DNA of 39,311 nt from Elusimicrobiota bacterium. Lineage in GTDB: Bacteria; Elusimicrobiota; Elusimicrobia; 2-01-FULL-59-12. The stretch spans positions 1-39,311 of the forward strand of contig JBBSDO010000003.1 in the NCBI GenBank assembly GCA_038241515.1, written 5' to 3'. Of this stretch, positions 1 to 27,607 are shown piece after piece. Each line of letters begins with the position of its first letter. Within the stretch, counting starts at the first letter, position 1. The position numbers and the translations under genes were made by a program. The notes beneath the pieces were generated by a model that was not told the DNA's origin, searched no databases, and saw only the letters and a program-made list of their open reading frames with translations.

Positions 1-1
1 G

Positions 2-1936: not shown

Positions 1937-1966
1937 ATAACAAACGAGAGATCGATAGCGTGGGGC

Positions 1967-2392
1967 TTAGTGGAGGATGGCGAGTTTGCCTTTGCTCTGG
2001 CCACCTTGTGGATCGGTGACCAAATAAAGGTAAATACCAGAAGCGACCGAATCCCCGGAATCATTGGTTCGATCCCAGTTGGCGGCGCCCGAAGCGGCTG
2101 AAAGAGTTCGAACCAAGTGTCCCGAGAGGGTGAAAATCTGAACGCTCGAAGAAAAAGGAAGGTGGTCAAAATTAATCGTGCTGTTGGCGTGAATCTCGGC
2201 CCGCCACGGATTTGGATATACGCGAATCCCTTCGATGGGACTAACAACCGTCGACGCTTTAGCCGAAGATGGCGCTAGGGCTGTTCCCGTCCTTGGCATT
2301 TCCATAACGGGAGGAACCGCGGACGACCCGAATGAGACCCAGGGAAGCGCAAAAAAGACGGCGAGAAGAGTGGGCGTCGCGAGTAATTTCAT
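1967..2392 (-). CDS. Small exported protein consisting of a T9SS type A sorting (CTD/FlgD-Ig-like) domain
   Basis: Signal peptide, then VYPNP...IFTLSGHLVRTL...WD...VASGIYLY...KGKLAILH. Confidence 0.8.
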   Translation of the reverse strand: MKLLATPTLLAVFFALPWVSFGSSAVPPVMEMPRTGTALAPSSAKASTVVSPIEGIRVYPNPWRAEIHANSTINFDHLPFSSSVQIFTLSGHLVRTLSAASGAANWDRTNDSGDSVASGIYLYLVTDPQGGQSKGKLAILH

Positions 2393-2397
2393 GTTCG

Positions 2398-3564
2398 TTA
2401 CTTGGTGTAAGAACTGCCGGAGCGGCCGGCTTGTGCCACGTGCGAATCATCATCCGAGAGAAGCTGCATCAGCTGCATGTATTCTGGCTCCGAGAGGGTC
2501 TCGGCGCCCTTAGCCGTCCGATGCTTTTTGATTGTTTGGTAGTGGATCAGGTTGCGGCGTTCCTCTTCGCGGGCGCCGAAGCGTGCGAGTACCGAGAAAT
2601 ATTGGGTGTTGCCTAGTTCCCCATAGGGAACCCACGCGTACGCCAACTCTTGTCCTAAGATGTGAATGCCGATACCCGTGCTGAAACCAGCGAGCGGGCT
2701 CAAGCCCTTTAACGTATCCGTTCGATAGCCGGCGCGAAGCGATATGGCCTCTAGCGGACGCCATTGACCGCCGATATGAAAGCTGCCAAGTCCGTTTCGC
2801 GCGTAAACGGCTTCGGTCGTCAACAAATAGTGGGACGTCGGCTCGTAAGCGGCGCCGGCGTGAAAGGTCATGGGGAGCGGATCCCCGTCGCTCAAAAATT
2901 TCAGCTGCGTTCCGACATTCGTCAGGGTTCCGGCAAGCGACAATTTCTCCGTCACTTTGTACAACGAACCGAAATCGAGCGCGTAAGCATTGGCGCTGAC
3001 GTCGTCAATTTTGGCGTTTATCCATTTGCCCGTTACACCCAAAGCGAGCTTGTCGCCAACGGTCTGTCCATACGCCACATTGTAGGCTCCATAGTGGCTG
3101 TTAAAGGATCCAATGGACGTGCCGGAAATATCTGTGCTTGGAATGTCGCCGGACGCTAAATACTGCGCCGATACCCCGATGCTGCGGTGTGTCGGGTTTG
3201 ATCCGTGCGCATCGCCCAGCGGGTGAGAGAAGCTCAAATATTCGTAATGGATGGATTCCAGATAGGAGAGGTGCTGAGCCGCCATTTCGTTCGCGTCATT
3301 AAAGCCGAGACCGGCGGGGTTCCAAGTCGGCGCGTAAGCATTTGTGGCCAAAGCGGTGTAAGCCGAACCTAAGGAAGCGGGACCTGCACCTACCGGAATA
3401 TCCAGAAACGAAGCGCCTTCCGTACCCGAAGACGCCCACGCGGACGCCGCCATAAAACCGACAAACAGATTGGCCAAAAGGTAAAGGCCGAAGATTTTGT
3501 GGCTTAGCCGGGAAGGTACTCTCATTTTCATAGGGTAAGTATGCTGTCTCAATGTTACGCTCAT
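2398..3564 (-). CDS. PorV/PorQ family outer-membrane beta-barrel protein
   Basis: Signal peptide; ASFLDIPVGAGPASLGSAYTA and WNPAGL motifs; beta-strand pattern. The true start may be a few codons downstream. Confidence 0.85.
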   Translation of the reverse strand: MSVTLRQHTYPMKMRVPSRLSHKIFGLYLLANLFVGFMAASAWASSGTEGASFLDIPVGAGPASLGSAYTALATNAYAPTWNPAGLGFNDANEMAAQHLSYLESIHYEYLSFSHPLGDAHGSNPTHRSIGVSAQYLASGDIPSTDISGTSIGSFNSHYGAYNVAYGQTVGDKLALGVTGKWINAKIDDVSANAYALDFGSLYKVTEKLSLAGTLTNVGTQLKFLSDGDPLPMTFHAGAAYEPTSHYLLTTEAVYARNGLGSFHIGGQWRPLEAISLRAGYRTDTLKGLSPLAGFSTGIGIHILGQELAYAWVPYGELGNTQYFSVLARFGAREEERRNLIHYQTIKKHRTAKGAETLSEPEYMQLMQLLSDDDSHVAQAGRSGSSYTK

Positions 3565-3723
3565 GTGTCAGTTACGTTAATTTTCTGTTACGGGCCTTTC
3601 TTAGCCCCGCGCGGCGGGTTTGTAAAGGGAAAAGTTAACGTGTGTTAACAGGTGAGAATTGCTTCCGACGGAGAGTAGAGGAAAGTTTTACAACTTAGTG
3701 AGAATGCAGACTTTTCGGCAGGT

Positions 3724-4023
3724 CTAAGAATGGATCGAAAATTCCGAAAAAAGGCCTTTCGATTCATGGCGCTCAATGAGAACATCATCGACGCAGGCCA
3801 TCGCAGGTCCTTGACGAAGCTTTCGGAGCCAATCCTCAAGGCAAGCTTTGTCGCCTTCGGCCTCACACACAACGTCTCCGTCGGGAGTATTGCGAACCCA
3901 CCCAACGATGTTCGCTTGGACAGCGGATTGATGAACGAAGTAGCGGAAACCAACACCTTGCACACGGCCTTTCACGCGAATAGACATTCCAATCCAGTTC
4001 TTCGCAAGCTTAGCCTTTGGCAT
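3724..4023 (-). CDS. acyP: Acylphosphatase
   Basis: VKGRVQGVGFRY and GWVRNTPDGDV motifs. Start moved to ATG 4023 (alternative 3987) because the longer ORF overlaps the Sel1 gene. Confidence 0.92.
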   Translation of the reverse strand: MPKAKLAKNWIGMSIRVKGRVQGVGFRYFVHQSAVQANIVGWVRNTPDGDVVCEAEGDKACLEDWLRKLRQGPAMACVDDVLIERHESKGLFSEFSIHS

Positions 4024-6268
4024 GCCTCGCCTTCGAACGCCACTTTTGCGCCTCCGTCGGGCTGACTGCCAGTCCCAGCCAACCGTTTTCGTAACTCTGC
4101 GCCAAAATATCCATGGCCTTTTTGTTGCCTCCGTCGGCCGCCTTGCGGATCCACTCGAGAGCGCGGCGATTGCTTTTTTTGACCCCTTCCCCGCGTGCGT
4201 AGAGTTCTCCGAGGCTGAGTTGAGCGGCCGGAATACCCTGAGGATCTTGGCCTGCCTTCGTATACCACTCAACCGCTTTGGCGGTATCCGTAGCCACACC
4301 GACTCCGCTTTCATACATCAAGCCCAGGCGATACTGGGCGTCGCGCGCTCCCTGGTTGGCGGCGAGTTCATACCAGTGGGCTGTTTGCGCAGGGTCTTTG
4401 GGGACTCCTTGACCGAGGTAGTACATGACGCCGAGCTTTATTTGCGCCTCAGGATTTCCTTGGTCCGCCGCTTTCTTTAACCACACCTGGCTTTGAGCCA
4501 AATCCTTAGGAACTCCAACGCCCGCCTCATAGAGAGCCGCTAATTGCATTTGCGCGGTCACATTTCCTTGTTCAGCGACCTTGCGATACCACCCCACCGC
4601 TTGAGCGGGATCCTTGTCTACGCCCACTCCATCCAAATAGAGACCGGCGAGCTGGAGCTGAGCCTCCACGCTCCCTTTGTCGGCGGCCTTTCGAAGCCAT
4701 TCTGCGGCGTGTACGGGACTTTTCGCGATGCCATCGCCATTCAGGAGCATCACGCCAAAGTAGAGCTCCGCCTCAGGATTTCCTTGTTCAGCGGCCTTTT
4801 TCAACCAATTCACGGCTTGAGCGGAATCTTTGGTCACCCCTGTGCCGTTGGCGAGCATGGCGCCGACATACACCTGGGCGTCGGCAACGCCTTTATCCGC
4901 CGCCTTCCTATACCAGTTCATGGCTTGGGCAGGATCTTTCGCGACGCCATCGCCTGTAGCATATAGGACAGCCAAGTTGTATTGGGCTTCGCCTATGCCT
5001 TGGTCGGCTGCTTTTCGGTAATAGAGAGCGGCCTGCGCGGGATTTTTGGCTACGCCGTCACCCGTGGCATACATGACGGCCAAGTTATATTGGGCTTCAG
5101 CCACACCTTGATCAGCGGCTTTTTTGTACCAGCTCAAGGCCTGGGCAGGATCTTTCGGGCCGCCCTGTCCATTTTGGTGCATCACCGCCAGCCGATACTG
5201 CGACTGGGCATTGCCTTGCTCAGCCGACTTGCGAAACCAATCCCCGGCGGCCGCCTCCTGTTTAGTCACCCCGATGCCACCGGCCGAGAAAATGCCTAGC
5301 CGATATTGAGCGTCCGCCTGTCCTTGAGCGGCAGCTTTCCGGTACCAGTCCAGAGCTTCCGGAAAACTCTTGGCGACCCCTTGCCCAGAAGCAAGCATCT
5401 CGGCAACGCGATATTGGGCGTTGGCATTCCCTTGCTGGGCGGCCTTGGCATACCATTCGACTGCCTGGCGGAGATCCTTCGTCATATTTTCTCCCCGTTC
5501 AAGAAACCCTGCAAACTCGTTTTCGGCATTGGCTAATCCCGCTTCTGCGGCATGTTGGATCCATTCAGCTCCGTGGGTCGCATCCTTGGAAACTCCCTCC
5601 CCGGAAATCATCATTTTGCCGAGACTGTATTCTGCTTCTGCGTAGCCCTGGTCGGCCGCTTTCTTGTACCAGGCCGCCGCATGCGTCAAATCCTTCGGGA
5701 CTCCTTGGCCGGTTTGAAATTGGCTGCCTAAACGAAATTGTGCTCCGGGGTGTCCTTGATGGCCGGCCTTATCCAGTAAACTCACGCCCTGCGTCGGATT
5801 TTTTTCCACCCCTGTGCCTTCGAGATACTGTACTCCCAGAGCATATTGAGCGTCCGCATCCCCCTGGTCAGCCGCTTTTTGATACCACGCAGCCGCTTGG
5901 GCCGGGTCCTTTTGGACTCCCGTGCCTTCGGTATAAAACCGGGCAAGATGCAGCTGAGCAATGGAAAGACCTTTATCCGCTGCCTTTCGGATATAGTTCA
6001 ACCCTTTCGCGGGGTCCTTAGGAATTCCTTCGCCAAAGGCATACATTTTACCGATGGTGAATTGGGCGAAGGTATTGCCTTCTTCGGCCATCGGGAGCAA
6101 GAGCTTCATCGCCGTCTTGTAGTCATGTTTTGTATAGGCACCCAAAGCGTCCGTACCGCTGGGAATGGGCTCCGCAGCTAAAACGACTCTAAAAACGAAG
6201 ACAATGAGAGGTAAAGCCAATCGATAATTACTATTCAAGGGAACCCCTTTATGTGATTGTGAGACCAC
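4010..6268 (-). CDS. Exported Sel1-like repeat protein (about 19 repeats)
   Basis: Signal peptide, then tandem 36-aa AQYxLGxMYxxGxGVxKDxxxAxxWYxKAAxQG units. Confidence 0.93.
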   Translation of the reverse strand: MVSQSHKGVPLNSNYRLALPLIVFVFRVVLAAEPIPSGTDALGAYTKHDYKTAMKLLLPMAEEGNTFAQFTIGKMYAFGEGIPKDPAKGLNYIRKAADKGLSIAQLHLARFYTEGTGVQKDPAQAAAWYQKAADQGDADAQYALGVQYLEGTGVEKNPTQGVSLLDKAGHQGHPGAQFRLGSQFQTGQGVPKDLTHAAAWYKKAADQGYAEAEYSLGKMMISGEGVSKDATHGAEWIQHAAEAGLANAENEFAGFLERGENMTKDLRQAVEWYAKAAQQGNANAQYRVAEMLASGQGVAKSFPEALDWYRKAAAQGQADAQYRLGIFSAGGIGVTKQEAAAGDWFRKSAEQGNAQSQYRLAVMHQNGQGGPKDPAQALSWYKKAADQGVAEAQYNLAVMYATGDGVAKNPAQAALYYRKAADQGIGEAQYNLAVLYATGDGVAKDPAQAMNWYRKAADKGVADAQVYVGAMLANGTGVTKDSAQAVNWLKKAAEQGNPEAELYFGVMLLNGDGIAKSPVHAAEWLRKAADKGSVEAQLQLAGLYLDGVGVDKDPAQAVGWYRKVAEQGNVTAQMQLAALYEAGVGVPKDLAQSQVWLKKAADQGNPEAQIKLGVMYYLGQGVPKDPAQTAHWYELAANQGARDAQYRLGLMYESGVGVATDTAKAVEWYTKAGQDPQGIPAAQLSLGELYARGEGVKKSNRRALEWIRKAADGGNKKAMDILAQSYENGWLGLAVSPTEAQKWRSKARHAKG

Positions 6269-6429
6269 TTGATCGTCATGCTATGATGGCCCGATCGACA
6301 AAGTGGCCTGCGACCTAATTTTTCTGGGAGCAACGCCCCCGTCCGTTAAAGCTTTGGCACGGTGTTACGTTTTCGTCTTTCAGAAGTTTAACAGATGCAG
6401 ATCCATCATTAAAGGGGCCTCCGATTCAG

Positions 6430-8127
6430 GTGCAATCGTCGTTCCCTCCATTTCGCCAAGCCTCGTCTTTCATCTTGGGAGTTTTAATCCTCCTGGGTCC
6501 CATACCGGAAGCGCATGCCCGAAAACGCAAACCGCAAAAAGTGGTCCGAATTCGAAGCATTAATGTAGAAGTCAAAAATATCTTTGACCCTTCTGTACGA
6601 GGTGAAAATTATTGGCCTTACCGTGTGGCCAATGCCGTTCATATTCGCACGCGTCCTTCCGTCATTTTGAAACAATTACTCGTCCGCCCGGGGGATGTCG
6701 TGAATCCCACCCTCCTCGAAGAATCAGAACGAAACCTGCGCGCCCTGCCCTTTGTAAAAGACGCAAAGATCGTCCAAGTTCCCACGCCTAACGGCGATGT
6801 CGACTTGCTAGTTCATACCCAAGACACCTGGACGACCCAACCCCAACTTAATTTCGGCAGCGAAGGCGGCCAAAATCATTCGTCGGCGGGGATACAAGAA
6901 GAGAATGTCTTAGGCTATGGCAAAAGTCTGGACTATTTTTACCGAAAAAACCCGGAGGGCATTTCCAACGAATTCGGTTACGGGGATCCCCAGATTCTCA
7001 ATACCCGCCTTCAGCTGAACTCGGCTTTCTTAGACACTCCCACAGGTAACGAAGAACACGTGAACATCGCACAACCCTTCTATTCACTCGAAACGCGAGC
7101 CGCTTCGGGACTCGCCGTGGATCGGGTTTTAGGTCTTCAAAAAGTGTATGAGAATGGAAATCAAACCACGGCCTACAATCAAGATCACTTAAATGTGGAC
7201 GGATTCGCCGGGCTGCGCTTGAATGACGACGCGATCAATGTGCATCGCACTCAACTTCGCTATCACTATATTCAAGATACGTACAGGAACGATGCGGCCA
7301 CAACCCCCGGTACACTTCCGAAACGAAAAGCGCTTTCGGGTCCTCTTCTCAAATGGTCGCTTCAGCAATCTGACTTTATCAAAGAAACTTTCGTGGATCG
7401 AGCCGAGAGAATTGAGGATGTGAATCTCGGGCACCAGACGTCTTTTGAAGGAGGCTATTCAGACCGTTGGCTCGGGGCGACAGAAAGCGCCCTTCCCTTT
7501 ACGGCTCTAGACCAATTCGGATTTGGGGGCGACGGGCCCTGGTTCGGGCTTGTTTCTTACGGAGCTTCAGGCCGCTACAACCTCTACGCCAGCGACCAGC
7601 TGGGTGGCCGTTTAGTCAATTCTCTCTACTTTGCTAACCTCACTTACTACCGCCATTTATTGCCCGAATTCCCGTTGACGGGTGTTCTCCATTTTGAGGC
7701 CGCCCATTTGCAAAACGGGGACACCACCAATCTTCTTTCACTCGGAGGCAATACCGGCCTGCGCGGATTCAAGGTCAACGCCTTTACGGGCAACAAAACC
7801 GGGCTATTCAACGCCGAGACGCGCTTTTTCTATCCTTATGAAGTGCTCCATCTCGCCTTTCTCGGAGGAGCCGCTTTTTTTGACGCCGGAGAAGCGCAGC
7901 CTCAAGGGAATGCATTTAGGTCTCAAGACATCCACGCGGACGTTGGGGCAGGCCTGCGGATAGGCTTGACTCGTTCCACCGAAGGCAGCGTGGTTCGGAT
8001 CGATCTCGCCTACGCCATTGGACCCATCCAACAGGACAATCGTTGGATTCTCTCTATCTCGACTGGCCAAGGGTTTAAACGCGCTTCCAATAGCTATGCG
8101 AAGTTCGCGGATGTGCCGAACCAGTAA
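6430..8127 (+). CDS. Omp85 (BamA/TamA)-family outer-membrane protein with POTRA domain
   Basis: Signal peptide; POTRA (HIRTRPSVI...LEESERNLRAL); EENVLGYGK; LGGNTGLRGF; FFDAG; DVGAGLR; RIDLAY. Confidence 0.85.
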   Translation: MQSSFPPFRQASSFILGVLILLGPIPEAHARKRKPQKVVRIRSINVEVKNIFDPSVRGENYWPYRVANAVHIRTRPSVILKQLLVRPGDVVNPTLLEESERNLRALPFVKDAKIVQVPTPNGDVDLLVHTQDTWTTQPQLNFGSEGGQNHSSAGIQEENVLGYGKSLDYFYRKNPEGISNEFGYGDPQILNTRLQLNSAFLDTPTGNEEHVNIAQPFYSLETRAASGLAVDRVLGLQKVYENGNQTTAYNQDHLNVDGFAGLRLNDDAINVHRTQLRYHYIQDTYRNDAATTPGTLPKRKALSGPLLKWSLQQSDFIKETFVDRAERIEDVNLGHQTSFEGGYSDRWLGATESALPFTALDQFGFGGDGPWFGLVSYGASGRYNLYASDQLGGRLVNSLYFANLTYYRHLLPEFPLTGVLHFEAAHLQNGDTTNLLSLGGNTGLRGFKVNAFTGNKTGLFNAETRFFYPYEVLHLAFLGGAAFFDAGEAQPQGNAFRSQDIHADVGAGLRIGLTRSTEGSVVRIDLAYAIGPIQQDNRWILSISTGQGFKRASNSYAKFADVPNQ

Positions 8128-8136
8128 CAGCTAACG

Positions 8137-8230
8137 GCAAGGCAAAATGCAAAAGGCATAGGGCAAAAGGCAAAACTCTTGGGGTACTTTAATTTGAGAC
8201 TTCGAAGGAGATTTGCAATTTTTCGATTTT
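8137..8230. repeat. Degenerate (GGCAAAA)n heptamer palindromic element between convergent genes
   Basis: ggcaaaa-tgcaaaa-ggcatag-ggcaaaa-ggcaaaa-ctctt ... ggagatttgcaatttttcgattttc. Matches 22857-22967. Confidence 0.7.
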
Positions 8231-8234
8231 CTGT

Positions 8235-9041
8235 TCAGCGATCGGGGCAGACGTTTAGCGGTTGAAATCCGGGGTGGCTAAGGAAAGCTTCGAGCCCTTT
8301 GTCCGTGACTTCCGTGCAGCTCGTGTTGAGCATCTGAAGATTGGGCAGCCCGCGCAGCACGACGATCCCCTGGTTCCCGATACTCGTGTTATTGATATGC
8401 AGCGTTTGCAGATTTTCGAGGGAGCGAAGCGGCATCAGACAGAGACCCCTCAACTTGGTATTACCCAAATCCAGGATTTCCAATTCAGACAGCCCCTTCA
8501 AATGGACTAAACCGGCGCCCGTGATTTCAGTGCTGTTGAGCTCCAACTCCTTTAGCTTTTTGAGCGGCTCCAAATGCGCTAAGGCAGCGTCGCTGATGCT
8601 TGTAGCGCGCAAGCGAAGTTTTTTCAGGTGGGTGAGTCCTGCCAGCGCGGCGATCCCTTCGTCGGTCACCAGAGTTTCGCTCAAGTCCAGGGCTTCCAGC
8701 CCTTTCAATCCCCGCAGATGGGCTATTCCTTCGTCATGGAGTCCGGTCGCGTGCAGGTCCAGCTCTTTCAGCTGAGCCTGATTTTCCATCGCCGCCAAGC
8801 TGTCATCAGTAATTTCGCGATGGCCCGCTAGGGATAAACTTTTAATTCCGTGCTTGGGGAGGTCAGCGGCTAAGAGCTGGAGTTGAGCGTCGCTCACGCG
8901 CAGATCGGGCGGTAAGCTAAAGCTTTCGCTGACTATGGCGGAGAGGGTAATCGGTTGCGCCGCCGGAGGATCCTTCTCTTCGGCAGACAAGGGTAGGACG
9001 ACGAGCGCCAAAAGGGCCAATAGGGTCCATCCGATTTTCAT
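8235..9041 (-). CDS. Exported leucine-rich repeat protein
   Basis: Signal peptide; about 8 repeats of 24 aa, LxxLxLxxTxITDxGLxxLxxL. Confidence 0.9.
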   Translation of the reverse strand: MKIGWTLLALLALVVLPLSAEEKDPPAAQPITLSAIVSESFSLPPDLRVSDAQLQLLAADLPKHGIKSLSLAGHREITDDSLAAMENQAQLKELDLHATGLHDEGIAHLRGLKGLEALDLSETLVTDEGIAALAGLTHLKKLRLRATSISDAALAHLEPLKKLKELELNSTEITGAGLVHLKGLSELEILDLGNTKLRGLCLMPLRSLENLQTLHINNTSIGNQGIVVLRGLPNLQMLNTSCTEVTDKGLEAFLSHPGFQPLNVCPDR

Positions 9042-9454
9042 TTCACTTCGATCAGTTGGTATTTCGATTCGTCACTTTGTTCGAGCACCGCCCGATGCCT
9101 CTCGGCAGCAATCTTCTTTTGCACCTTTTTGTCTAATTTTTCAACACCTTTTATGCTTTCCACCCGCACCGATTTCTCTTTGAATAGCCCGCCCTGACCT
9201 GGCGGGATATACCACACGCGCTCGTAGTAGTCGTCATAACTTATAAAAAGACCTTCAACCGACTTCCCCTTGGCCAAGCGGATTTGGACGTAGTCACCTC
9301 GCGAAAGTCCCTGTAAAAACTGAACCATCGCATCTTTGGAACCCGTCGCTTCAATTTTTAGTGACTTGGTGGAGGAGAAGGCGCATTGAACAAGGAATAC
9401 GACAGAGAGTAAAACCGTCGACGTCAAACGCCCGCAAAAGTGATGGCCCCGCAT
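9038..9454 (-). CDS. Hypothetical exported protein
   Basis: Hydrophobic N-terminus; ATGA overlap with the LRR gene. Confidence 0.7.
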   Translation of the reverse strand: MRGHHFCGRLTSTVLLSVVFLVQCAFSSTKSLKIEATGSKDAMVQFLQGLSRGDYVQIRLAKGKSVEGLFISYDDYYERVWYIPPGQGGLFKEKSVRVESIKGVEKLDKKVQKKIAAERHRAVLEQSDESKYQLIEVK

Positions 9455-9477
9455 AGGATTCCGTCACAAAGTCTAGC

Positions 9478-9720
9478 ATGAAGAATAAAACGAACGGAAG
9501 TCCCTCTAAGAGTTGTATGGAGATCAATCTGATCCGCGATCTGCCAATGGTGGAGCGACCTCGAGAACGGCTGGCGCGCGTCGGGGCCGAAGGTCTCAAA
9601 GCCGAAGAGCTATTGGCGATCGTGCTGCGAACCGGGGACATGGGGCTCTAGAGGTCGCTTGCGCTCTCCTCGCTAGTCACAGCATGGGACAACTCCTTGC
9701 TATGCCGCTCACGGGGATCA
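9478..9720 (+). pseudogene. radC: Truncated, frameshifted 5' copy of radC
   Basis: Near-identical to 10539-10788 with a 7-bp deletion (accgg[ctaccgg]ggac). Similarity ends at about 9720. Confidence 0.9.
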
Positions 9721-9764
9721 CAGTTCATGAATGAGGGACGGGCGGTGCTTGGATAAGCTGGCGA

Positions 9765-10394
9765 TTACTGCACCTTCCCTAGCTTAAACCCTGAAGAAAA
9801 AACATTTGCAAAACTAAATCCAGCCACCTGCCAAAACCAAACACTGGTGACTAGAAAGCCAATGCCAAATACAATTAATCCAAGCAAGGAAAGAACCAGG
9901 GCCATCAATGCAATCCCCCAAGCGTGCCAATAGGCGGAGCCACCTTGCAGGCAACGTCGGAGCGCTTTAACTGGGTTATAGATTTCTGAGACGTCATACC
10001 GAACACAGTAATGAGACATATAACCGGGAATAGCTAGCGTAGCGGCAATAAGAAACAAGCCTCCCGCGATCGTCGCCGCGGGTAGTTGCATTTTTAAACC
10101 GAGCCAAATAAGAGCTGCCCCGGGTGAACAGTAATACACCATACCTAGCCAGGTGACGATGCCTAGCTTGAGCAATTTCCCATAGTCATTCCATGCCGGC
10201 CATGCAGATTCTCCCTGCTGCATTTGGTGAACCATTTGAATTCGATGCCCCATGTTTAGCAGCCAACCAATCCCCGGCAGAAGCACGAGCAGCACCGCTC
10301 CCCATAGGACTTCTCGAACAGATTCCCGATTTTGTATGGGGAATCGGAAAGCAGCCCGAAGGCTCAATCGTGTTTGAAGAGAAATCTCTTTCAT
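9765..10394 (-). CDS. DUF4013-like membrane protein
   Basis: AFRFP...GWLLNMGH...WPAWNDYGKLLKLG pattern, 4-5 TM helices. Visibly more AT-rich than its neighbours. Confidence 0.75.
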   Translation of the reverse strand: MKEISLQTRLSLRAAFRFPIQNRESVREVLWGAVLLVLLPGIGWLLNMGHRIQMVHQMQQGESAWPAWNDYGKLLKLGIVTWLGMVYYCSPGAALIWLGLKMQLPAATIAGGLFLIAATLAIPGYMSHYCVRYDVSEIYNPVKALRRCLQGGSAYWHAWGIALMALVLSLLGLIVFGIGFLVTSVWFWQVAGFSFANVFSSGFKLGKVQ

Positions 10395-10538
10395 TGGAAA
10401 AATTGATGTTTTTACACTAAGAAGAGCGTATCAAAAAGACTTAGATTTTTTGGGGGGGAACAGCGGTGCCTTGAGCGATACCTTATCGGCTCTTATATTG
10501 ATTTGTAGTTCCTCAGTGTCAGACGCCTAACTTTTAGC

Positions 10539-11255
10539 ATGAAGAATAAAACGAACGGAAGTCCCTCTAAGAGTGGTATGGAGATCAATCTGATACGCGA
10601 TCTGCCAATGGTGGAGCGACCTCGCGAACGACTGGCGCGCGTCGGGGCCGAAGGACTCAAGGCCGAAGAGCTTTTGGCGATCGTGCTGCGAACCGGCTAC
10701 CGGGGACATGGCGCCCTAGAGGTCGCTCGCACTCTCCTCGCTAGTCACAGCATGGGACAACTCCTGGCGATGCCGCTCACGCGGCTCAGCGGCTTGCGAG
10801 GCATGGGTCCCAGTCGCGCCTCAAGCTTGCTGGCGGCCGCGGAACTCGTTCGGAGAGGCGAGAAAGGGACGGATCTTGCTTTTCCCACTATCCAGTCCGT
10901 CAACGATGTAGTGGCCCAGGCCCTCGAGATCCGCGACAAGAAGAAAGAATATCTGCTTGCCTTTTTCCTAAACGCTCGCCACCAGCTCATCGCCAAGGAA
11001 ACGATCTCGATAGGGACCCTAACGGCGTCTCTCGCGCATCCCCGCGAAATCTTCGCGCCGGCGATCGGCAAAGCGGCCGCCGGAGTCATTCTGGTGCACA
11101 ATCATCCCTCCGGCGATCCTTCCCCCAGCGACGAAGACATTCGCCTGACGAAGCGCATCGCCCAAGCCGGCCACATCATGGGGATCGACCTGCTCGACCA
11201 TTTGATCGTGGCCGAGAGCGGAAGCTACAGCTTCAAAACGGCGGGGGGCCTATGA
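10539..11255 (+). CDS. radC: RadC / UPF0758 JAB-domain protein
   Basis: ERPRERL, ELLAIVLRTG, HPREIF, LVHNHPSGDPSPSDED and LLDHLIV motifs. Confidence 0.96.
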   Translation: MKNKTNGSPSKSGMEINLIRDLPMVERPRERLARVGAEGLKAEELLAIVLRTGYRGHGALEVARTLLASHSMGQLLAMPLTRLSGLRGMGPSRASSLLAAAELVRRGEKGTDLAFPTIQSVNDVVAQALEIRDKKKEYLLAFFLNARHQLIAKETISIGTLTASLAHPREIFAPAIGKAAAGVILVHNHPSGDPSPSDEDIRLTKRIAQAGHIMGIDLLDHLIVAESGSYSFKTAGGL

Positions 11256-11277
11256 TCAACTGCAACGATCTGTGCCC

Positions 11278-11394
11278 GTGTCGTCTTTCAGTTTTCAGTT
11301 CTCGGTTCTCCGGTCTCGGTTTTCTGGTCTCATGTTTTTCAACGCAAGAGATCCGAGACCAGAAACCGGAAAACTGAGAACTGAGAGACGGCAC
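11278..11394. repeat. Heptamer-built palindromic element (TTCTCAG/CTGAGAA family), copy 1
   Basis: gtgtcgtctttcagttttcagttctc... / ...gaaaactgagaactgagagacggcac inverted arms. Confidence 0.9.
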
Positions 11395-11411
11395 AAGAAA
11401 GGAGACGACGG

Positions 11412-11780
11412 GTGGCAATATCGTTTCATGATCGATGTCTCTGGCTTGGCGTGGGGGTCTACAAAGCTTTTGCGACGGCGCGACGAACTCGCGCTTCGCG
11501 GGATATCCTTGATCAGCTCATCCGAAGCGGAGCTTCCATCGGCGCCAATGCCAGCGAGGCGCGCGGCTCAGAATCGCGCGCCGATTTCGTGCACAAAATG
11601 GGCATCGCTTTGAAAGAAGCCCGCGAGACCGGATACTGGCTTGCCTTTGTTGAGCTCGCTGAGATTGCTACCGATCCTAGCCTACCGGCATTGAGGGCCG
11701 AATGCGACGAACTCATCGCTATTCTGGTGAAGTCAATCACGACAGCCAGGCGGAATGCCGCTCAAGCAAATTCCGACTGA
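11412..11780 (+). CDS. Four-helix-bundle protein (TIGR02436 / 23S rRNA intervening-sequence protein family)
   Basis: QLIRSGASIGANASEA...SRADFVHKMGIALKEARETGYWL signature; AAGGAG RBS before the GTG start. Confidence 0.92.
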   Translation: MAISFHDRCLWLGVGVYKAFATARRTRASRDILDQLIRSGASIGANASEARGSESRADFVHKMGIALKEARETGYWLAFVELAEIATDPSLPALRAECDELIAILVKSITTARRNAAQANSD

Positions 11781-11796
11781 AAATTATCTATGGTTA

Positions 11797-11899
11797 GTGC
11801 CGTCTTTCAGTTCTCAGTTCTCCGGTCTCGGTTTTCTGATCTCGCTTTTCAGAGCCAGAAATCCCAGAGTAGAAACCGGAAAACTGAAAACTGAGAGCG
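11797..11899. repeat. TTCTCAG-family palindromic element, copy 2
   Basis: gtgccgtctttcagttctcagttctccggtctcgg ... agaaaccggaaaactgaaaactgagag. Confidence 0.9.
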
Positions 11900-11922
11900 A
11901 TCCGCCGCTATGAACCACGCCC

Positions 11923-12031
11923 GTGTTGTCTCTCAGTTCTCAGTTCTCCGGTCTCGGTTTTCTGGTCTCGCCTTTCAGAGCAAGAAATCCGAGACCAAAA
12001 ACCGGAAAACTGAGAACTGAAAGACGGATAC
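11923..12031. repeat. TTCTCAG-family palindromic element, copy 3
   Basis: gtctctcagttctcagttctccggtctcgg ... ccgagaccaaaaaccggaaaactgagaactgaaagac. Confidence 0.9.
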
Positions 12032-12077
12032 TTAGAGGCGGAACACGTCCCCTAACTGTGATATTCTGTCGGAAGGA

Positions 12078-13958
12078 ATGAACACTGTGGAATCAAGCGT
12101 GCTTAAATCGATCTTTGGCCATGAAGACTTCCGGCCGGGGCAGGAAGAACTCATTGACGCCTTGCGGCAGGGCCGCGATTTGTTGGGCGTGATGGCCACC
12201 GGGAGCGGCAAGTCCTTGTGCTACCAGTACCCGGCCGTCGTGGAAAACAGTCGCTGCCTGGTTGTTTCGCCTCTGATCAGCTTGATCAATGACCAAGTCA
12301 AAAAGTTGGATCTCTCCGGCGTGCCGGCAGCCGGCCTCCATAGCCACGCGACACCGCGGGACCGGCACCGTGCCATAGAACGCTGGCACGCCGGGGAGTT
12401 ACGTTTTCTGTATGTCGCGCCGGAGCGCTTCTCCGATCCCTTATTTATCGCCTCCTTGGAAAAGGCGCGGCCGGACTATATGGTGATCGATGAGGCCCAC
12501 TGCATTTCCCAATGGGGACACGATTTCCGTCCGGAATATCAGACCTTGGGTCTGCTCAAAGAGCGATTGGGCGTGCCGTTTGCCGCCTTTACCGCCACGG
12601 CGACTCCGCTTGTCCAGAAAGAGATCGTCGCGAATTTGCGGCTTCAAAAACCACTCGTCCGCGTGCATGGATTTTATCGCCAGAATCTCTCATTTTCCGG
12701 GATCCTAGAAGGCCGTGAGCGAGCACGCCTAGAGCGAATTCGCGATGAAGTGGCGCTCGAGGGAGCGGCCATTGTCTATTGTTCCTCGCGTCAGCGCGTG
12801 GACGATTTGACGGAAGAACTCAAGAGCATGGACCTGCCCGCCTATGCGTATCACGCCGGCCTAGATGCGAAAGTACGCGAGCAGACGCACCAGCATTTTC
12901 AGAATGATGCGCGCGTCGTCATCATCGCGACAAATGCCTTTGGAATGGGTGTCGATCGGCCGGACGTGCGCTGCGTCATTCATGCCCAAATGCCGGGAAC
13001 GGTCGAAGCCTACTACCAGGAAGCCGGAAGGGCCGGCCGGGACGGTCTCCCAGCGAAATGTCTGCTTCTGCATAGCCCGGGCGATGTCGCCATCCAACAA
13101 TTTTTTATTCGCCATTCGGTGGAATCGGTCCCGGCGGAGAAGCGGGAGACATGGGAACGGCATAAGCAGGAACAGCTGGACCTCATGCGGCGCTATGCCT
13201 ATGGCGCCGGCTGTCGCCAGCAGTCCATCATGGATTATTTCGGAGATGTGGAGACCTTGCCCAAAGGATGCGGTCGGTGCGATAACTGCACCACCCCCGA
13301 TGCCGCGCCGGTACAAGACGACACTCAGGAGACCATTCGCGTCCTTCTTTCGGGAGCGGTGAGGCTCCAAGGGCGCTTCGGCAATACGCAGCTCACGGAT
13401 CTCGTGACAGGAAGCGATACCGCCCAGATCCGGCGGTGGTCCCACGATAAACTTCCTACTTACGGGCGCTTAAGGGAGATGCCCAAACGCCACGTGCAGG
13501 GGATGATTCAAGCTCTTGTACGGCAAGGCTATTTGCGCCAAGAAGGACTTCGCTACCCCGTTCTGGCAATTACCGATGAAGGCCGTGAAGTGATGCACAA
13601 CCGTGCTCAGGCCCGCCTGGGTCCCTGGCAGCCACCGCCGGGTCAAAAGAAAAAGCGCGGCTCAAAGAATTTCTCACCCGTGCCACCAGCGCCTTCAATG
13701 CGGCCCGAAGCCCCGGAGATTCCTGGCCTCCGAGAAGCCCTTCGCGCTTGGCGATTGAATAAAGCGCGAGAGATGGACATGCCGCCCTACACGCTTTTTT
13801 GGGACCGCACGCTTGAGGAGCTCTGTGCACTCCGACCGCAAAGCCTCGACGACCTGTTGGGGATCTGGGGCATCGGCGAACAAAAGCGCCGAGTGTTCGG
13901 CCAGGAACTCCTTGAAGTCATTGCAACCCACGGTGCCTCGGGTCCCACCCGTGGATAG
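12078..13958 (+). CDS. recQ: ATP-dependent DNA helicase RecQ (helicase, Zn, RQC and HRDC domains)
   Basis: [55 protein letters not shown]-terminal HRDC. Confidence 0.96.
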
Positions 13959-14391
13959 CGGCTCGGCCCCGACCTTACAGACGGCAAAACAATGGCTGCG
14001 GGGCTATTATTACGCCACGCCGGTCTTTATGGCGGTAGACGCCATTTTCGGTGTCAGCCTGCGGGCGGCCGCGCTCGACGGACATCCCATCATCAAGTGG
14101 CTCTATTACGGATTCTGCCTTTTGTGCGCCTTCTTCATGTGGCGGGGCGTTCGCGCTTCGGGTTTGATCAGCTTGGGGGAAAGTATGGTGAATATCGTCA
14201 TGATATTTGTCAGTTTCCTTTATCCGTATTACCACTTGGTGGGAACCTACGAAGTCGGAATGGAGATGGTTAATCCATTCACGATCCAGCACATCACGAA
14301 TTTCATTCTAGTGGGCGGCGCAGCGCTCTTATCCTTCTATCAGACCGGGCTTGCATCGCTTACTGCGCCAACACCGACCGGACAGTACTGA
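13951..14391 (+). CDS. Hypothetical membrane protein (about 4 TM)
   Basis: Hydrophobic ORF; GTG start at 13951 overlaps the recQ stop. Start uncertain. Confidence 0.65.
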
Positions 14392-16504
14392 GAACTTGCT
14401 CCGCCGCTTCGCGAAAGCGTTCCTTTTCGACTGCCGAGTCTAGAATCCTTATAAAAATCCCTTTCGCATCGGCACCTTCAGCCGACCTCAGTTGGGTGAG
14501 CGCTTCGTAAGACGCTTCCGCGAAATAGTCCCGAAGCAAGTGCGGGCTCACACTGTTCAGATGTGCTTTTGCAAAACCGATCGCCGGCAGGCCGGGCAGC
14601 TCTTTTCCGGCTTCCGGCACAAAAGACACCATCATCGGCAGATATTTTTGGGGTTGGGCAAGGACCTGCTGGTAACTGATGTGCTGGTCGCCGGTGCCTT
14701 GCATAACCCATTCCACGCCCAACTTCACCAGCTGAAGACGCAAGTCCTGAAAGCCCGGTCGCTCCAGATAAATGAACGGGACCCATTTTCTGCCCGCTTT
14801 AGCGGCGTATTCAGCCACTCGCCGAATAAAATCACGCATGGCAGCGACGTCCGCGACATTTGAGCGATCGGCTATCTCGGGAATGTTCGTCATCACTTGG
14901 CATTGCCGGGCCAATTCTTGCGAGCGACGCATGGCCCTTGTGATGGCTCCTGCTGAAGCGCGTTCTTCCTCCTGTAGTTTCTTGAAGCGGTCATCCACGA
15001 GGCCTTTCCCAAGCTCCACGTAAGGCTGCCGCAAAAACAAGTTCTCTTGGAGGATTTTTGTGGCGGGGTTATTCAAATCGTTTAACGCGATGTCCTCCGC
15101 CGAATGCCCAGCGTGCAAGAGAGCTCGGGCGATTAACCGAGTGCCCACGGTGTTTGTTATGCCGTAAAAAGTGCTAAACAAATCGGCATACATTTGAACG
15201 AGGCTTTCCCGGCGTTTGCCGGTAGCGGTTTCCGGCCCCAGGCTTTCCACTTTGAATGATTGGGCATCCAAGGAACGGGCCGACAAATTGATGACGAGCC
15301 GAGTGGGGTGGTTCGAGTAGTTCTTGGCCTGACTCTCCCAAAGGCTTTCCGGGACCGCCACCAAGTTGGCAAATCCCTCTTGCCAAAGGCTCTCATTAAA
15401 ATTTTGTTCGTTCGATTTTCCAAACCAGAAAAGCTCGTCCGGTACGAGGAGCGCGATGTCCGTGATGTCCTCATCGAGGATTCGATTTCCAATTTGGTTG
15501 GCGCGGTGCTTCCCATCGCGGATCTTCGCGATGTGTCCTCGCCTCGCCGTCCAGTAGGCTTGCGCATCCAATTCAAAGTAAGCCAAGAATGTCATCATAT
15601 GGAGGTCGGCAGTCCAGCGTCCCCCCACGTTTTCGAACATCGCCCCGAATCCCGGCGCGTCCTCCCCTAAGGCTTTATCAAGTCCCGAATTGCGCATGAA
15701 AGCCGATAGGCGGCTTTGCGAGGGTTCATCCGTCGTCTCAAAAAACATCCTCCCAAGCACATCTTTAAAGAGGATCAGAACCCCTTCTTTGTCGAGACGC
15801 GCTTGGGCGGAGGCCAGCCGCTTGGCCAAATCATCCAGGCTGAACCCGTTAAACAGTTCGGCGCTCGTCTTATCCCTTGGCACATTCAAATCGCGGAAGT
15901 AGCTAAGCAGAATGTCTTTGGAACTCACGGCTTCCGTTTCGGAAAACCCTCGGGCCATCAGCGACCGCTTCAAAAGGATCCCAAAAATCTGCACAAAGAT
16001 TTCCATCGTTTCGTCCGTCGATCCCGATTTCGAACTGGGAATCACGGCGACTTGGTCCCAACCCGCTCCGAGTTCCTGAAGAGTTTCGCTCATCGTCTGC
16101 TCGAAATCTTTACCCAGCTCATATTCACCGGCAATCCGAACCGTCTTAGGATCATCGATGACTGCAAAGCCATCGGCAATCCCTTGGAAAGGCGTATGTT
16201 GGCCGCCGATACCGGTCTTGATCACGTAGCGGATTTCCTTTCCTTTCTGCCGATGCCGGTTAAAAAACCTTTTCATCGTATCCACGGTGCCCAGGAAAGC
16301 TTCTTGTCCCCCATCAGCGTAATAACCCTGATTCCCCTCAAAGGCAAAAGAACCATCGATCGCAGCGCCCACGGAAACGCCGTACCCCGGCTTTTTGTAT
16401 CCGCCTTCCGTGAATCGGTGATCGGTCTCCGGAACTCCGGTGGATTTTAAGGGCGTCCGCAATTTTTCAGCTATTCGGTTGGCTTCCTGTTTTTCATTTT
16501 CCAT
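14360..16504 (-). CDS. Divergent glucose-6-phosphate isomerase-like (SIS-domain) protein
   Basis: TGIGGQ, SSKSGSTDET, NVGGRW, EQNFNES and QPYVELGK correspond to the PGI motifs GIGGS, SKSG, GGRF/Y, QLxxES and QPGVExGK. Confidence 0.7.
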   Translation of the reverse strand: MENEKQEANRIAEKLRTPLKSTGVPETDHRFTEGGYKKPGYGVSVGAAIDGSFAFEGNQGYYADGGQEAFLGTVDTMKRFFNRHRQKGKEIRYVIKTGIGGQHTPFQGIADGFAVIDDPKTVRIAGEYELGKDFEQTMSETLQELGAGWDQVAVIPSSKSGSTDETMEIFVQIFGILLKRSLMARGFSETEAVSSKDILLSYFRDLNVPRDKTSAELFNGFSLDDLAKRLASAQARLDKEGVLILFKDVLGRMFFETTDEPSQSRLSAFMRNSGLDKALGEDAPGFGAMFENVGGRWTADLHMMTFLAYFELDAQAYWTARRGHIAKIRDGKHRANQIGNRILDEDITDIALLVPDELFWFGKSNEQNFNESLWQEGFANLVAVPESLWESQAKNYSNHPTRLVINLSARSLDAQSFKVESLGPETATGKRRESLVQMYADLFSTFYGITNTVGTRLIARALLHAGHSAEDIALNDLNNPATKILQENLFLRQPYVELGKGLVDDRFKKLQEEERASAGAITRAMRRSQELARQCQVMTNIPEIADRSNVADVAAMRDFIRRVAEYAAKAGRKWVPFIYLERPGFQDLRLQLVKLGVEWVMQGTGDQHISYQQVLAQPQKYLPMMVSFVPEAGKELPGLPAIGFAKAHLNSVSPHLLRDYFAEASYEALTQLRSAEGADAKGIFIRILDSAVEKERFREAAEQVLSTVRSVLAQ

Positions 16505-17440: not shown

Positions 17441-17475
17441 GATGGGTCCTCCGCCAGTGGCTGCGGAGGATGACG
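17441..17475. repeat. Half copy of REP-like element (GATGGGTCCTCCGCC..GCGGAGGATGACG)
   Basis: Two mismatches to 37011-37045. Confidence 0.8.
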
Positions 17476-21116: not shown

Positions 21117-22987
21117 AGGACGTCCTTTTCCACTACATCTAAAAGATGTCGGAAGGTCAAAATCGATTTTCGCACTTCCTCCGGTCGAACCTGCGTGGGG
21201 GCAAATTGAAAGAGATCAAAGGTTTCCCAAAGCGCGCGGACCTTTTCCGTATCGTGAGAATGCAGGCCGCGAGCGCGCAGTTTCTCAAGAGCCAGCTTAA
21301 GCGATAGCTCCGATTCCGGGGTGACTAATTTTGCAGCCAGATAGGCATGCAGCGCGTGGCCTAAGGTTTCTGACGATTTTTTTATGTCTGACCTCCCCAA
21401 ATCGCCGTCAGCGCTGAGCATGAGTTTCTCGGTTTCTTCGCGCGCTTGTTCGAAACGGGCAAGGGCGGTATTGGAAAGGAAGAATAGAGAATAGAGGCGG
21501 TAAAGGGCGGCCGCGATGACTCCGAACAAGAAAAGTGCGTTAAAAATTTGAAAAAGACGGCTCTTGTAAAGCGGCCCCCCCTGAGCGGAGAGTTGGGAAG
21601 GTGTGCGAATGTAACGAATATCTTCGCCGAGAAGCCGAATCCCAGGCGTTGACGATGGGGCAGAACTGTAGGGAGCGGCCGGGGCGGCTCCTCCGGGGCC
21701 GGCAGGGCTGACGTGGACAGTCAGCGGACGCGAAGCAATGGTTTTATACGCGTGTGCATCCGAATCAAAAAAGACAAAATAAACCGCCGGAATTTGCAGA
21801 TCCCCAGAAGCCGTTGGAATCAAGACGGTTTTAAAAACTTTCGAGCCTTGGACCTGGCCATCCTTCTTTTCAATGTTTGTGGCCGCATTGGGATCAAAAG
21901 TTCGCACGTTCGGAAGCGGCGGAAGGGGCAGATCCGGCAGCGATTTGATGTTTCCCCGTCCGGCCACCGTGATGCTCAGAGTCAGCGGCTGCCCGACCAT
22001 CGTATGATCCTTATCCAGATTGGCGACGATCGTATAGTGGCCCACCGCCCCTTTGAAGTTAGCCGGTTTGGGATCCGGTAGAGGTTTGACACGAATAGCG
22101 ACCGGGTCGGTCCGCAGCACTTTTTCTTCCCCTCGACCGAAAAAACTGGCAAAAAAGTCGTCGCTGAAGGGATCGGTTCCAATATTCTCGATACTGACAC
22201 TCAAAGTCGCGGGACCGATGGTCGCCTTGCCCTGCCCTGTGGGAAACAAGGCCGTCCTGACTTCCGTGACATTGTAGGGAACTCCTTTCACGGTGGTCTG
22301 ATAGTTGCGCTGCGGCGGGAGATCCTCGGCCCAAAATCCGGAGGTCTGCGGCGGCTGATAGTTGGGCTGGCGCAGCAGCCTTACCCGGTTGAATAGGCGA
22401 AACGAATAGGTTAAGGGTTCGCCCACATAAACCGAGGATTTATCAGCGCTGCCTGTAATAAAGAGTGCCGTCGACCCCCTGCCCGTCTGCGCGCGTTCCC
22501 CCGGCTGTTTTTGCGGAGCGGGTAAGGCATTCGCCTCGCCTTTAACCACGTCGAGCGATAAAGGTTGAGTCTCTGCCGCCTGTCCCGCAATTTTGATCGG
22601 AGGAATTGTAAAGTGCCCTTCTTTCAAAGCCAGGAGTGCGAAGTTATAGGTCACGCTCGCCGAAGCTTGCCCATTGACCCACGTAAAATTCTGCGACCGG
22701 CCGGCGTTGGAGATTTGAAAGTCCTGAAACGTCGGGAGTTGAGGTTCTGGCAAGTTTCCCGAACCCGAGATCGTCACACTCAGACTCGCTTGCTCGTTCA
22801 ACGCCACCTGCTGGCGGTCGAGGCTGGCTGAAATTTGAACGTCAGCGGCATACAGAAGGGCAAAAGGCAAAAGGCAAAAGGCAAAGGGCAAAACTCTTAC
22901 GGTGTTCTTAATGAATAAACCGCAGGAGCTTTGCCTTTTGCCCTTTGCCTTTTGCACTTTGATTTTCCGTAATCTACCAATCTTCAT
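21104..22987 (-). CDS. batD: BatD family protein
   Basis: Three BatD beta domains (YVGEPL, FKGAVG, G.GNI), C-terminal TM. Start set at ATG 22987, overlapping batC. Confidence 0.88.
   Translation of the reverse strand: MKIGRLRKIKVQKAKGKRQSSCGLFIKNTVRVLPFAFCLLPFALLYAADVQISASLDRQQVALNEQASLSVTISGSGNLPEPQLPTFQDFQISNAGRSQNFTWVNGQASASVTYNFALLALKEGHFTIPPIKIAGQAAETQPLSLDVVKGEANALPAPQKQPGERAQTGRGSTALFITGSADKSSVYVGEPLTYSFRLFNRVRLLRQPNYQPPQTSGFWAEDLPPQRNYQTTVKGVPYNVTEVRTALFPTGQGKATIGPATLSVSIENIGTDPFSDDFFASFFGRGEEKVLRTDPVAIRVKPLPDPKPANFKGAVGHYTIVANLDKDHTMVGQPLTLSITVAGRGNIKSLPDLPLPPLPNVRTFDPNAATNIEKKDGQVQGSKVFKTVLIPTASGDLQIPAVYFVFFDSDAHAYKTIASRPLTVHVSPAGPGGAAPAAPYSSAPSSTPGIRLLGEDIRYIRTPSQLSAQGGPLYKSRLFQIFNALFLFGVIAAALYRLYSLFFLSNTALARFEQAREETEKLMLSADGDLGRSDIKKSSETLGHALHAYLAAKLVTPESELSLKLALEKLRARGLHSHDTEKVRALWETFDLFQFAPTQVRPEEVRKSILTFRHLLDVVEKDVLWKD
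22857..22967. repeat. (GGCAAAA)n/(TTTTGCC)n heptamer palindrome in the batD 5' end
   Basis: ggcaaaa x5 ... ctttgcc-ttttgcc-ctttgcc-ttttgca. Confidence 0.88.
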
Positions 22988-27574: not shown

Positions 27575-27607
27575 GAGTGGAGCCCCAACTGGCGGGGAGG
27601 CGGCGGG

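Follow-up and report, generated by a model that had tools for sequence, protein, structure and literature searches.

The window analysed here is the whole of contig C3 (JBBSDO010000003.1, 39,311 bases) of an Elusimicrobiota draft genome (G000; 2.81 Mb in 302 contigs, 87% complete, 53% G+C), and the element under study lies in it between radC and recQ. With very little room for doubt, this locus is a long-resident cassette of the type found as intervening sequences (IVS) in 23S rRNA: an open reading frame (ORF) of the PF05635/TIGR02436 four-helix-bundle (4HB) family set within inverted, lineage-specific heptamer arrays, with the purine-rich array upstream. The same architecture recurs elsewhere: tandem heptamers specific to each lineage stand in inverted orientation on either side of 4HB genes, in the design of an IVS, and such arms (sometimes with an 8-nt unit) were found at 107 of 134 4HB loci from three samples, against 6 of 304 shifted control windows. 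The original prediction, made from the letters of the window alone, had proposed a partnership between the gene and its palindromes; it was right at heart, and the association proved real, wider and stronger than had been noted, but the locus is an old, stable member of its class and not an active mobile element. Taken as a whole, the evidence is best explained, at a probability that I put at about one half, by an IVS-type cassette with RNase III-type stems whose own protein probably reads the arms.

The cassette between radC and recQ

A repeat search of the window yielded four imperfect palindromes of ~110 nt, P1 to P4, all in direct orientation on the + strand, with halves that are 78-94% alike (repeat families D2 and D5) and arms that measure 40-47 nt and are complementary at 76-85%. 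A period of 7 nt runs through the arms, which read for example TTTCAGT TTTCAGT TCTCGGT TCTCCGG TCTCGGT on the left with the complements on the right. The order on one strand is radC - P1 - 4HB - P2 - P3 - recQ, which bears out the earlier description of a TIGR02436-type gene in the radC-recQ gap with one palindrome 5' and two 3', all heptamer-built and co-oriented. P1 (11278..11395, +) begins 23 nt past the stop of radC; its left arm is pyrimidine-rich (TTTCAGT/TCTCGGT), and its purine-rich right arm (11348-11394; GAGAACT/GAAAACC) serves as the upstream arm of the cassette. A Shine-Dalgarno-like AGGAG (11400..11404, +), read from the sequence, stands 7 nt 5' of the GTG start of the 4HB gene (11412..11780, +; 122 aa; TIGR02436 and PF05635 matches), and the left arm of P2 (11797..11901, +), at 11797-11843, serves as the downstream arm. 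These two arms, 11348-11394 and 11797-11843, form an inverted repeat of 47 nt, 85% complementary and 402 nt apart, that encloses the 4HB ORF. P3 (11923..12031, +) is a tandem duplicate of P2, 88% alike at a distance of 126 nt, and ends 47 nt before the start of recQ, while P4 (34448..34576, +) is a solo hairpin of the same family that lies 20 nt past the stop of ORF 34596-36734(-).

As RNA, P1, P2, P3 and P4 fold at -67.2, -43.8, -54.7 and -52.2 kcal/mol (z of -10.2, -5.4, -7.9 and -5.5), and for each of them none of 200 shuffles folded as well as the native hairpin. No Rfam family, rRNA included, reached its gathering score in the window; the matches below that score were eukaryotic microRNA precursor hairpins only and were rejected. 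Two DNA read sets, examined over the locus, yielded short unitigs only, which end at the hairpins, and the joint 11307-11799 lies within repeat and was not counted. No RNA run was found that contains positions 10400-12600 of the window.

The upstream neighbour, radC (10539..11255, +), encodes a RadC-like JAB domain protein (PF04002, E 1.3e-40; PF20582, E 3.6e-20), and the downstream neighbour is a recQ helicase gene (12078..13958, +) with DEAD, Helicase_C, RQC, HRDC and RecQ_Zn_bind domains. The 5' end of radC and the region upstream of it are duplicated 1.06 kb upstream (9474-9720 vs 10535-10788, 91-94% identical), which leaves a short radC-like ORF at 9478-9651.

The cassette's protein scores 59.3 bits against PF05635 (cut-off 33.8) and 81 bits against TIGR02436 (cut-off 24). 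It carries the motif RxxxSxxxNxxE at R38, S42, N46 and E49, and Q35, R38, S42, E49 and E72 are invariant across 26 of its relatives; the family motif has been published as GxxRxxxSxxxNxxE (PMC3936711, cited throughout for part of its text), and the window protein has Q where this consensus has G. A predicted model built on seven relatives (pLDDT 92.4) has helices at 5-20, 27-51, 56-83 and 91-121, and its best structural matches are 2RLD (TM 0.71-0.85), 2GSC (TM 0.75-0.84) and Avd 4DWL (TM 0.72-0.81), so that the family and fold named in the original prediction stand. The subfamily profile matches 2rld_A at E 5.6e-30, and entry 2RLD, with five chains, is pentamer-forming. The protein gave no match to the Avd equivalog NF033474, neither a reverse transcriptase nor a template repeat was found beside its gene, the neighbours being radC and recQ, and no Y1 (IS200/IS605-like) transposase was recognised in the caged gene, whose Pfam match is PF05635 only.

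Inverted heptamer arms around 4HB genes

To score arms, the flanks of a gene were compared for their best complementary match without gaps, over 260 nt on each side in G000, and a flank score of at least 12 was set as the threshold. Among 1500 random G000 intervals the median score was 8 and the 99th percentile 11, with two intervals reaching 14 or more. G000 has 11 PF05635 matches, and its 4HB genes scored 49 (on contig C20), 26 (the window), 19 (C57) and 12 (C105), with six others at 8-10. The C20 cassette has the same hairpin-gene-hairpin form as that of the window; C57 and C105 have no complete hairpins but a heptamer array 5' and its complement 3', with a unit that differs per locus.

Three samples were then pooled. 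The window's taxonomic family, represented by 11 genomes, gave 19 of 30 4HB loci with a score of at least 12, each locus with its own unit. A broad sample, obtained by scanning a species-level genome collection with the subfamily profile, held 80 loci (77 testable) from WOR-3, Nitrospirota, Planctomycetota, Verrucomicrobiota, Bacteroidota, Cyanobacteria, Omnitrophota, Chloroflexota, Acidobacteriota and other phyla; here 69 of 77 loci scored at least 12 and 42 at least 18, against 5 of 252 control windows shifted by 1.5 or 2.3 kb at the same loci. The third sample, for which 81 genomes of the window's phylum were searched with the Pfam model, gave 19 of 27 loci against 1 of 52 controls, and some of its units are 8 nt long.

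The arms share further traits. Their best period was 7 or 14 in 61 of 69 loci, the array upstream was purine-rich on the sense strand in 32 loci and the opposite in 7, and the median distance from the 4HB stop codon to the downstream array is 13 nt. Where the upstream ORF is co-oriented, its end lies at a median distance of 4.5 nt from the upstream arm (broad sample), and 31 of 51 loci have both neighbours on the strand of the cassette. Most often, one inverted arm pair encloses the gene (49 of the 58 loci whose enclosing repeat is strong), and complete palindromes on both sides, as in the window, occurred at 3 of 77 loci. The layout that the original prediction had likened to that of repetitive extragenic palindromes (REP) and their associated transposases (RAYT) holds insofar as gene and repeat are associated and the cassette is mobile on an evolutionary time scale; the palindromes on both sides are a minority form.

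The same arms are also present at annotated genes of named organisms. AGTCGGA units abut ORF NPUN_RS34315 on pNPUN01 of Nostoc punctiforme PCC 73102, and the 4HB gene on pTS1 of Treponema saccharophilum has GAAAGYG units. In Anabaena cylindrica PCC 7122, ANACY_RS28330 has AAAAGTA arrays and lies between cas2 and cas1 on the opposite strand (pANACY.01, NC_019772.1, 154915-156530; locus L186), a position that fits the report of 4HB genes inside cas operons (PMC3936711). For annotation and assembly it is of practical relevance that heptamer arrays break contigs and that 4HB genes turn up in cas loci. In one relative of G000 (G007), a 4HB frame (L021, 1480-2019) runs into its downstream array of ~21 units, which would add a repetitive, DAGLETR-like tail of ~60 residues. 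In 1.6 Mb of the same genome, 6-13 arrays elsewhere had the same unit as a cassette; this had no control and was not counted. Searches with the 4HB family names and heptamer or repeat terms, in one literature collection with supplements excluded, returned no paper that states the rule, and it appears to be undescribed.

The heptamer follows the protein lineage

For the 61 loci with a clear unit, protein identity and heptamer distance were correlated with a Spearman coefficient of -0.32, which none of 2000 permutations reached. The unit was shared by 45% of locus pairs with >60% protein identity, by 8% of pairs at 35-60% and by 0.3% of those below 25%. Judged from these sequence comparisons, the unit varies from one 4HB lineage to another and is passed on together with the protein.

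Fifteen pairs of loci had the same unit, seven of them with homologous flanks on both sides (syntenic orthologues) and eight without, several of whose flanks are short. In the seven syntenic pairs, four-fold sites of the 4HB gene were 24-44% identical and hence saturated, while the arms were 72-88% identical; the unit sequence evidently stays constrained where four-fold sites are saturated. Arm mismatches comprised 31 G.U, 41 A.C and 79 other pairs against 1713 Watson-Crick pairs, without any excess of G.U on the sense strand. A word that is kept at neutral saturation, for which pairing alone is insufficient and which shows no G.U excess, makes a sequence-specific reader likely, and a co-inherited, ring-forming 4HB protein is the obvious candidate for it.

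Age and mobility of the cassette

The best comparison for the window's copy is G002, a genome of a different genus (RecQ 72% identical), which reads radC - hairpin - 4HB - hairpin - recQ with the same heptamers, and whose orthologues are 75% (radC) and 69-72% (4HB) identical. Its GGAGAT before ATG aligns with the AGGAG-GTG start of the window. Four-fold identity between the two was 0.41 for radC (n=91) and 0.27 for the 4HB gene (n=45), and the hairpins are 72-75% identical, with nearly identical outer arms and a right end of P1 that matches in 23 of 23 bases. G002 has one downstream hairpin only and lacks P3, which is a later tandem copy of P2.

Across the 11 genomes of the family, the window's hairpin family was present in G000, in G002 (two solo copies besides the two at the cassette) and, weakly, in G003, and was not found in the eight others. 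One solo of G002, on its contig C19, lies next to the orthologue of G000:C63:8214-10205, and a half copy is retained there in G000. From the conserved order of the cassette and this orthologous solo site it follows that the cassette and at least one solo predate the split of the two genera. The cassette type is gained and lost on evolutionary time, and the window's copy has been in place since before that split. The original prediction had read this copy as part of a candidate mobile system, and had taken synteny of the gene without repeats in relatives to speak against a partnership; the copy is not recently mobile, and in G002 the gene is syntenic together with its hairpins. Upstream of recQ, neither radC nor a 4HB gene was found in G001, G009 and G018 within the up to 1.5 kb available, nor was either in view in G006 (~200 nt upstream of recQ) and G010 (contig ends at recQ); with so little DNA upstream of recQ, these five genomes provide no empty radC-recQ site.

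One clean insertion was found at another locus. In G007, a 579-nt cassette fills the gap between a gltB-like gene and gltD, from 1 nt past the TAA of the former to 6 nt short of the ATG of the latter (..AACTAA, cassette, ATGGG..), whereas its congener G008, with flanks that are 78-79% identical, has a single nucleotide at the gltB-gltD junction and the genes abut (..AACTAAGTGGG..). G000 has an unrelated 108-nt spacer at this junction. The filled site in G007 against the empty one in G008 indicates that the inserted unit is bounded by the arms, and no duplicated bases were seen at this single filled/empty pair. The flanks of three further G007 cassettes (L028, L036 and L044) were not contiguous in G008-G010, where contigs end near cassettes, and they gave no more empty sites. 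The mobility suggested for the cassette therefore holds on evolutionary time, as this insertion attests, and does not extend to the old and stable copy of the window.

An indel bounded exactly by the arms is also what one would expect of a DNA-level mobile element, with the arrays as terminal inverted repeats that the 4HB pentamer would bind as duplex or hairpin DNA and bring together while recruiting host enzymes for excision and insertion, and with the solos as non-autonomous relatives, in line with the analogy that the original prediction drew. Such an element, which I regard as unlikely, would further accommodate the arm mismatches without G.U bias, the conservation of the unit in sequence beyond pairing, the eight of 15 same-unit pairs without homologous flanks (several being short), and the 4HB genes inside cas operons (PMC3936711). 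It sits poorly with a family that has no known catalytic motif and no recombinase beside the gene, and with the absence of a target duplication at the single insertion; moreover, the window copy and one solo are fixed across two genera, the other seven of the 15 same-unit pairs are syntenic orthologues, and the solos of the window have an arm order opposite to that of the cassette, starting with the pyrimidine-rich arm where the cassette starts with the purine-rich one. Owing to this opposite order, the window solos are not simple deletion products of the cassette, and the pair formed by the gene-bearing and gene-less copies is not of the kind, with simple internal deletions, that the earlier comparison with MITEs (miniature inverted-repeat transposable elements) would suggest.

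Solo hairpins and other 4HB loci of G000

Outside the window, full copies of its hairpin family lie at C73:693-797, C118:7523-7643 and, two in tandem, at C170:6142-6410, and half copies at C63:10213, C118:5902, C144:7216 and C146:2340. P4 had been put at 34452-34572 as a gene-less fourth copy, and indeed no 4HB gene is beside it; it is not isolated, being flanked by ORF 34596-36734(-) and by a 122-aa ORF at 33990-34358. The latter, which lies between two different hairpins, was considered as a 4HB gene and rejected, as it has no Pfam match and is not a 4HB protein. Overall, G000 has 24 solo heptamer palindromes and 1.6 Mb of G007 has 34; the tandem-heptamer families of G000 are AAAAGGC (51 arrays), AACTGAG (19, that of the window), AAATGTT (18) and AAACTGC (17).

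The window itself holds five more long palindromes, at 8129-8221, 22851-22975, 27604-27754, 31707-31853 and 33857-33986, of which two have the unit AAAAGGC, two a unit of ~13 nt (GGCCATCGTGAAC) and one AACATTG. Several of the palindromes in the window lie inside strings of genes on the same strand (bat/moxR operon). AAAAGGC-type hairpins at C1:3500-3581, C151:4852-4918, C160:34-119 and C298:815-902 have a GC-rich inner stem followed by T runs and resemble two-way intrinsic terminators with A/T tracts grown into heptamer arrays.

All nine palindromes of the window lie within 41 nt past the stop codon of an ORF of at least 120 aa, a position in keeping with host hairpins, that is, REP-like stabilisers of 3' ends or intercistronic regions, or terminators, in DNA where the 4HB gene merely happens to sit. 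The abundance of solos in G000 and G007, the terminator-like copies, the largest solo family without a cognate gene in the assembly and three inverted array pairs of G007 that flank ordinary genes would all be at home in this account. I nonetheless consider it improbable: ordinary DNA of the same loci has arms in a small fraction of control windows (6 of 304) only, arms go with 4HB genes across phyla and in genomes that differ widely in composition, the unit tracks the protein lineage, and in G007 the arms belong to the inserted unit. A third account, in which a circle of gene plus one palindrome would recombine at a resident palindrome in the manner of an integron and solos would be empty sites, is very improbable, for although the window reads hairpin-gene-hairpin(-hairpin) in one orientation with solos elsewhere, the C20 cassette shares this form and both families of such form are rich in solo copies, complete palindromes on both sides are rare (3 of 77 loci), the empty site of G008 keeps no palindrome, and no integrase was found beside the gene among its neighbours radC and recQ (no genome-wide integrase search was made). 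The hairpin ends, CCGTCT...AGACGG, are what I take to be unlike an attC core.

Contig C17 of G000 (positions 1-16000; L156) carries four to five copies, 65-89% identical, of a ~0.6-kb variant of the 4HB cassette with complex hairpins that are not built from heptamers. They are spaced by 3.6-4.1 kb between unrelated genes, mostly without a Pfam match, and one copy has two in-frame TAG codons. The cluster was considered as a diversity-generating retroelement and rejected, as no reverse transcriptase was found among its ORFs.

A bipartite motif, GAA[TC]A-N15-18-TCTAA[GCT], was noticed between the upstream arm and the start codon at five of the 11 4HB genes of G000 (C57:7911, C105:3762, C20:161, C37:15597 and C17:7877) and is listed for loci L015, L016, L019, L020, L028, L029 and L036. 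It has 35 matches genome-wide in G000 against ~23 expected and is also present in relatives of the family; it is absent at the gene of the window and at the 80 loci of other phyla, and hence lineage-specific. The motif looks like a promoter of a special sigma factor, with a likeness to promoters of the extracytoplasmic function (ECF) type.

Proposed mechanism and points against it

The preferred explanation, an IVS-type cassette with a protein that probably reads its arms, has two parts. First, RNA that reads through from radC to recQ would form duplexes of at least 40 bp, either as local hairpins, since each arm in the window is completed to a full hairpin, or by pairing of the right arm of P1 with the left arm of P2. 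These duplexes would be RNase III-type substrates, and the cassette would be cut out of the host transcript or insulated within it, much as an ORF-bearing IVS leaves pre-23S rRNA; its excision would rid the flanking host RNA of a foreign insert and explain why insertions between cistrons are tolerated. The odds for duplex formation with excision or insulation of this type are not far from even. RNase III (PF00636) is encoded in nine of the ten relatives of the family. Second, and somewhat more tentatively, the heptamer word would be read by a sequence-specific factor, most likely the predicted pentameric 4HB protein of the cassette itself, for which additional sites would be provided by the solo hairpins that follow other genes.

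A broader generalisation, which I consider doubtful, would make all PF05635 proteins heptamer readers, with one pentamer per array and a 7-nt word for each lineage, and cassettes that insert between cistrons, are excised from RNA and seed or maintain dispersed hairpins and arrays. Short tandemly repeated repetitive (STRR) sequences and Xanthomonas-type inverted pairs, which have had no cognate protein since their first description, would be among these, in a partnership like that of RAYT and REP without a nuclease.

Several observations weigh against the preferred explanation. No clear arms were found at 27 of the 134 loci, including the four C17 copies (which carry other hairpins), C37 and C81 of G000. 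Inverted arrays at least 250 nt apart enclose or adjoin a 4HB gene at two of three such loci in G000, and in 1.6 Mb of G007 at two of five, with the other three flanking ordinary genes. The arrays have ~3-5 units without a peak at five, and so lend no extra support to the pentamer idea. For the AAAAGGC family, the largest with its 51 arrays, this assembly contains no cognate 4HB gene, and the reversed arm order of the window solos has to be explained in addition. In the absence of a G.U excess, selection on a sense-RNA stem alone is not visible, and a unit that is conserved exactly points to more than base pairing. Finally, the 87% complete assembly of G000 itself yielded no RNase III domain.

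Relation to known systems

The closest likeness is with ORF-bearing IVS. In Coxiella, the 23S rRNA IVS has a stem of 28-bp terminal inverted repeats around an S23p ORF, with the heptamer GACAGAT repeated 3-4 times in tandem just ahead of the start codon, RNase III makes its cuts within the stem, and a Xanthomonas homologue of S23p is a homopentameric ring (PMC4990558, of which a part of the text is cited here and below); within that text the heptamers were not generalised. IVS of Coxiella, Leptospira and others thus share with the cassette a PF05635-type ORF in the loop of a long stem, tandem heptamers in the stem before the start, a purine-rich upstream arm and a position inside a host transcript (PMC4990558), which supports the link to stem-flanked intervening sequences that had been drawn beforehand. 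In contrast, the element of the window lies between two protein genes and not in helix 25 or 45 of 23S rRNA, its arms are each completed to a hairpin, and solo hairpins of its family stand behind other genes. Cutting by RNase III is known for the IVS (PMC4990558), whereas at the window locus it is a prediction.

REP/RAYT systems and MITE pairs resemble the window in having a gene-bearing copy and dispersed gene-less palindromes of a lineage-specific family. They differ in that the gene of the window encodes a small four-helix bundle instead of a Y1 or DDE enzyme, no duplication of the target was seen, and the copies are old, some at orthologous sites, with solos of opposite arm order. Avd, a pentamer that contacts structured RNA, is of the same size and fold as the window protein (4DWL, with the TM scores given above; ribonucleoprotein entry 8UBB), which differs in having no NF033474 match and no adjacent reverse transcriptase or template repeat. 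TRAP and HutP are ring proteins that bind tandem RNA repeats, the sites of HutP having a 7-nt period; the likeness is one of analogy only, in that a ring may read one repeat per subunit in competition with the hairpin, and they have no sequence or fold relation to 4HB proteins, whose arms show no peak at five units.

Heptamer repeats have been reported from bacteria on their own account. Xanthomonas has GGGAATC pairs and Nostoc has GGGGAYT, with 70 convergent inverted pairs counted in X. campestris (PMC4692102), and Beggiatoaceae carry intergenic TAACTGA arrays (PMC4679880); the first of these papers states that no detailed literature on heptameric repeats exists. As portrayed in the text searched, these repeats are like the arms of the cassette, namely intergenic tandem units of 7 nt, often in convergent inverted pairs, of unexplained origin and function, and the terms '23S', 'four-helix' and 'intervening' have no occurrence in the searched text of either paper. 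The cyanobacterial 4HB loci of this analysis carry heptamer arrays. The heptamer repeats of cyanobacteria include the STRR sequences.

If the preferred explanation is true, a very common small family with solved structures (2RLD, 2GSC) and no known role would gain a function, and the origin and logic of the ORF-bearing IVS that fragment 23S rRNA would be explained. The unexplained excess of intergenic heptamer repeats in bacteria would be tied in with both. Under the arm rule, the flanks of a 4HB gene themselves spell out the nucleic-acid partner predicted for its protein, and hence a directly testable pair, among others in the tractable Nostoc punctiforme and Bacteroides thetaiotaomicron.

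Other repeats of the window

Two repeats without relation to the cassette were also noted. A GC-rich, hairpin-like repeat of 35 nt (GATGGGTCCTCCGCCAG..GGAGGATGACG) has two copies that are 94% identical, at 17441-17475 and 37011-37045, and the 752-aa ORF at 4010-6268(-) contains ~12 copies of a 108-nt coding repeat, corresponding to units of 36 aa.

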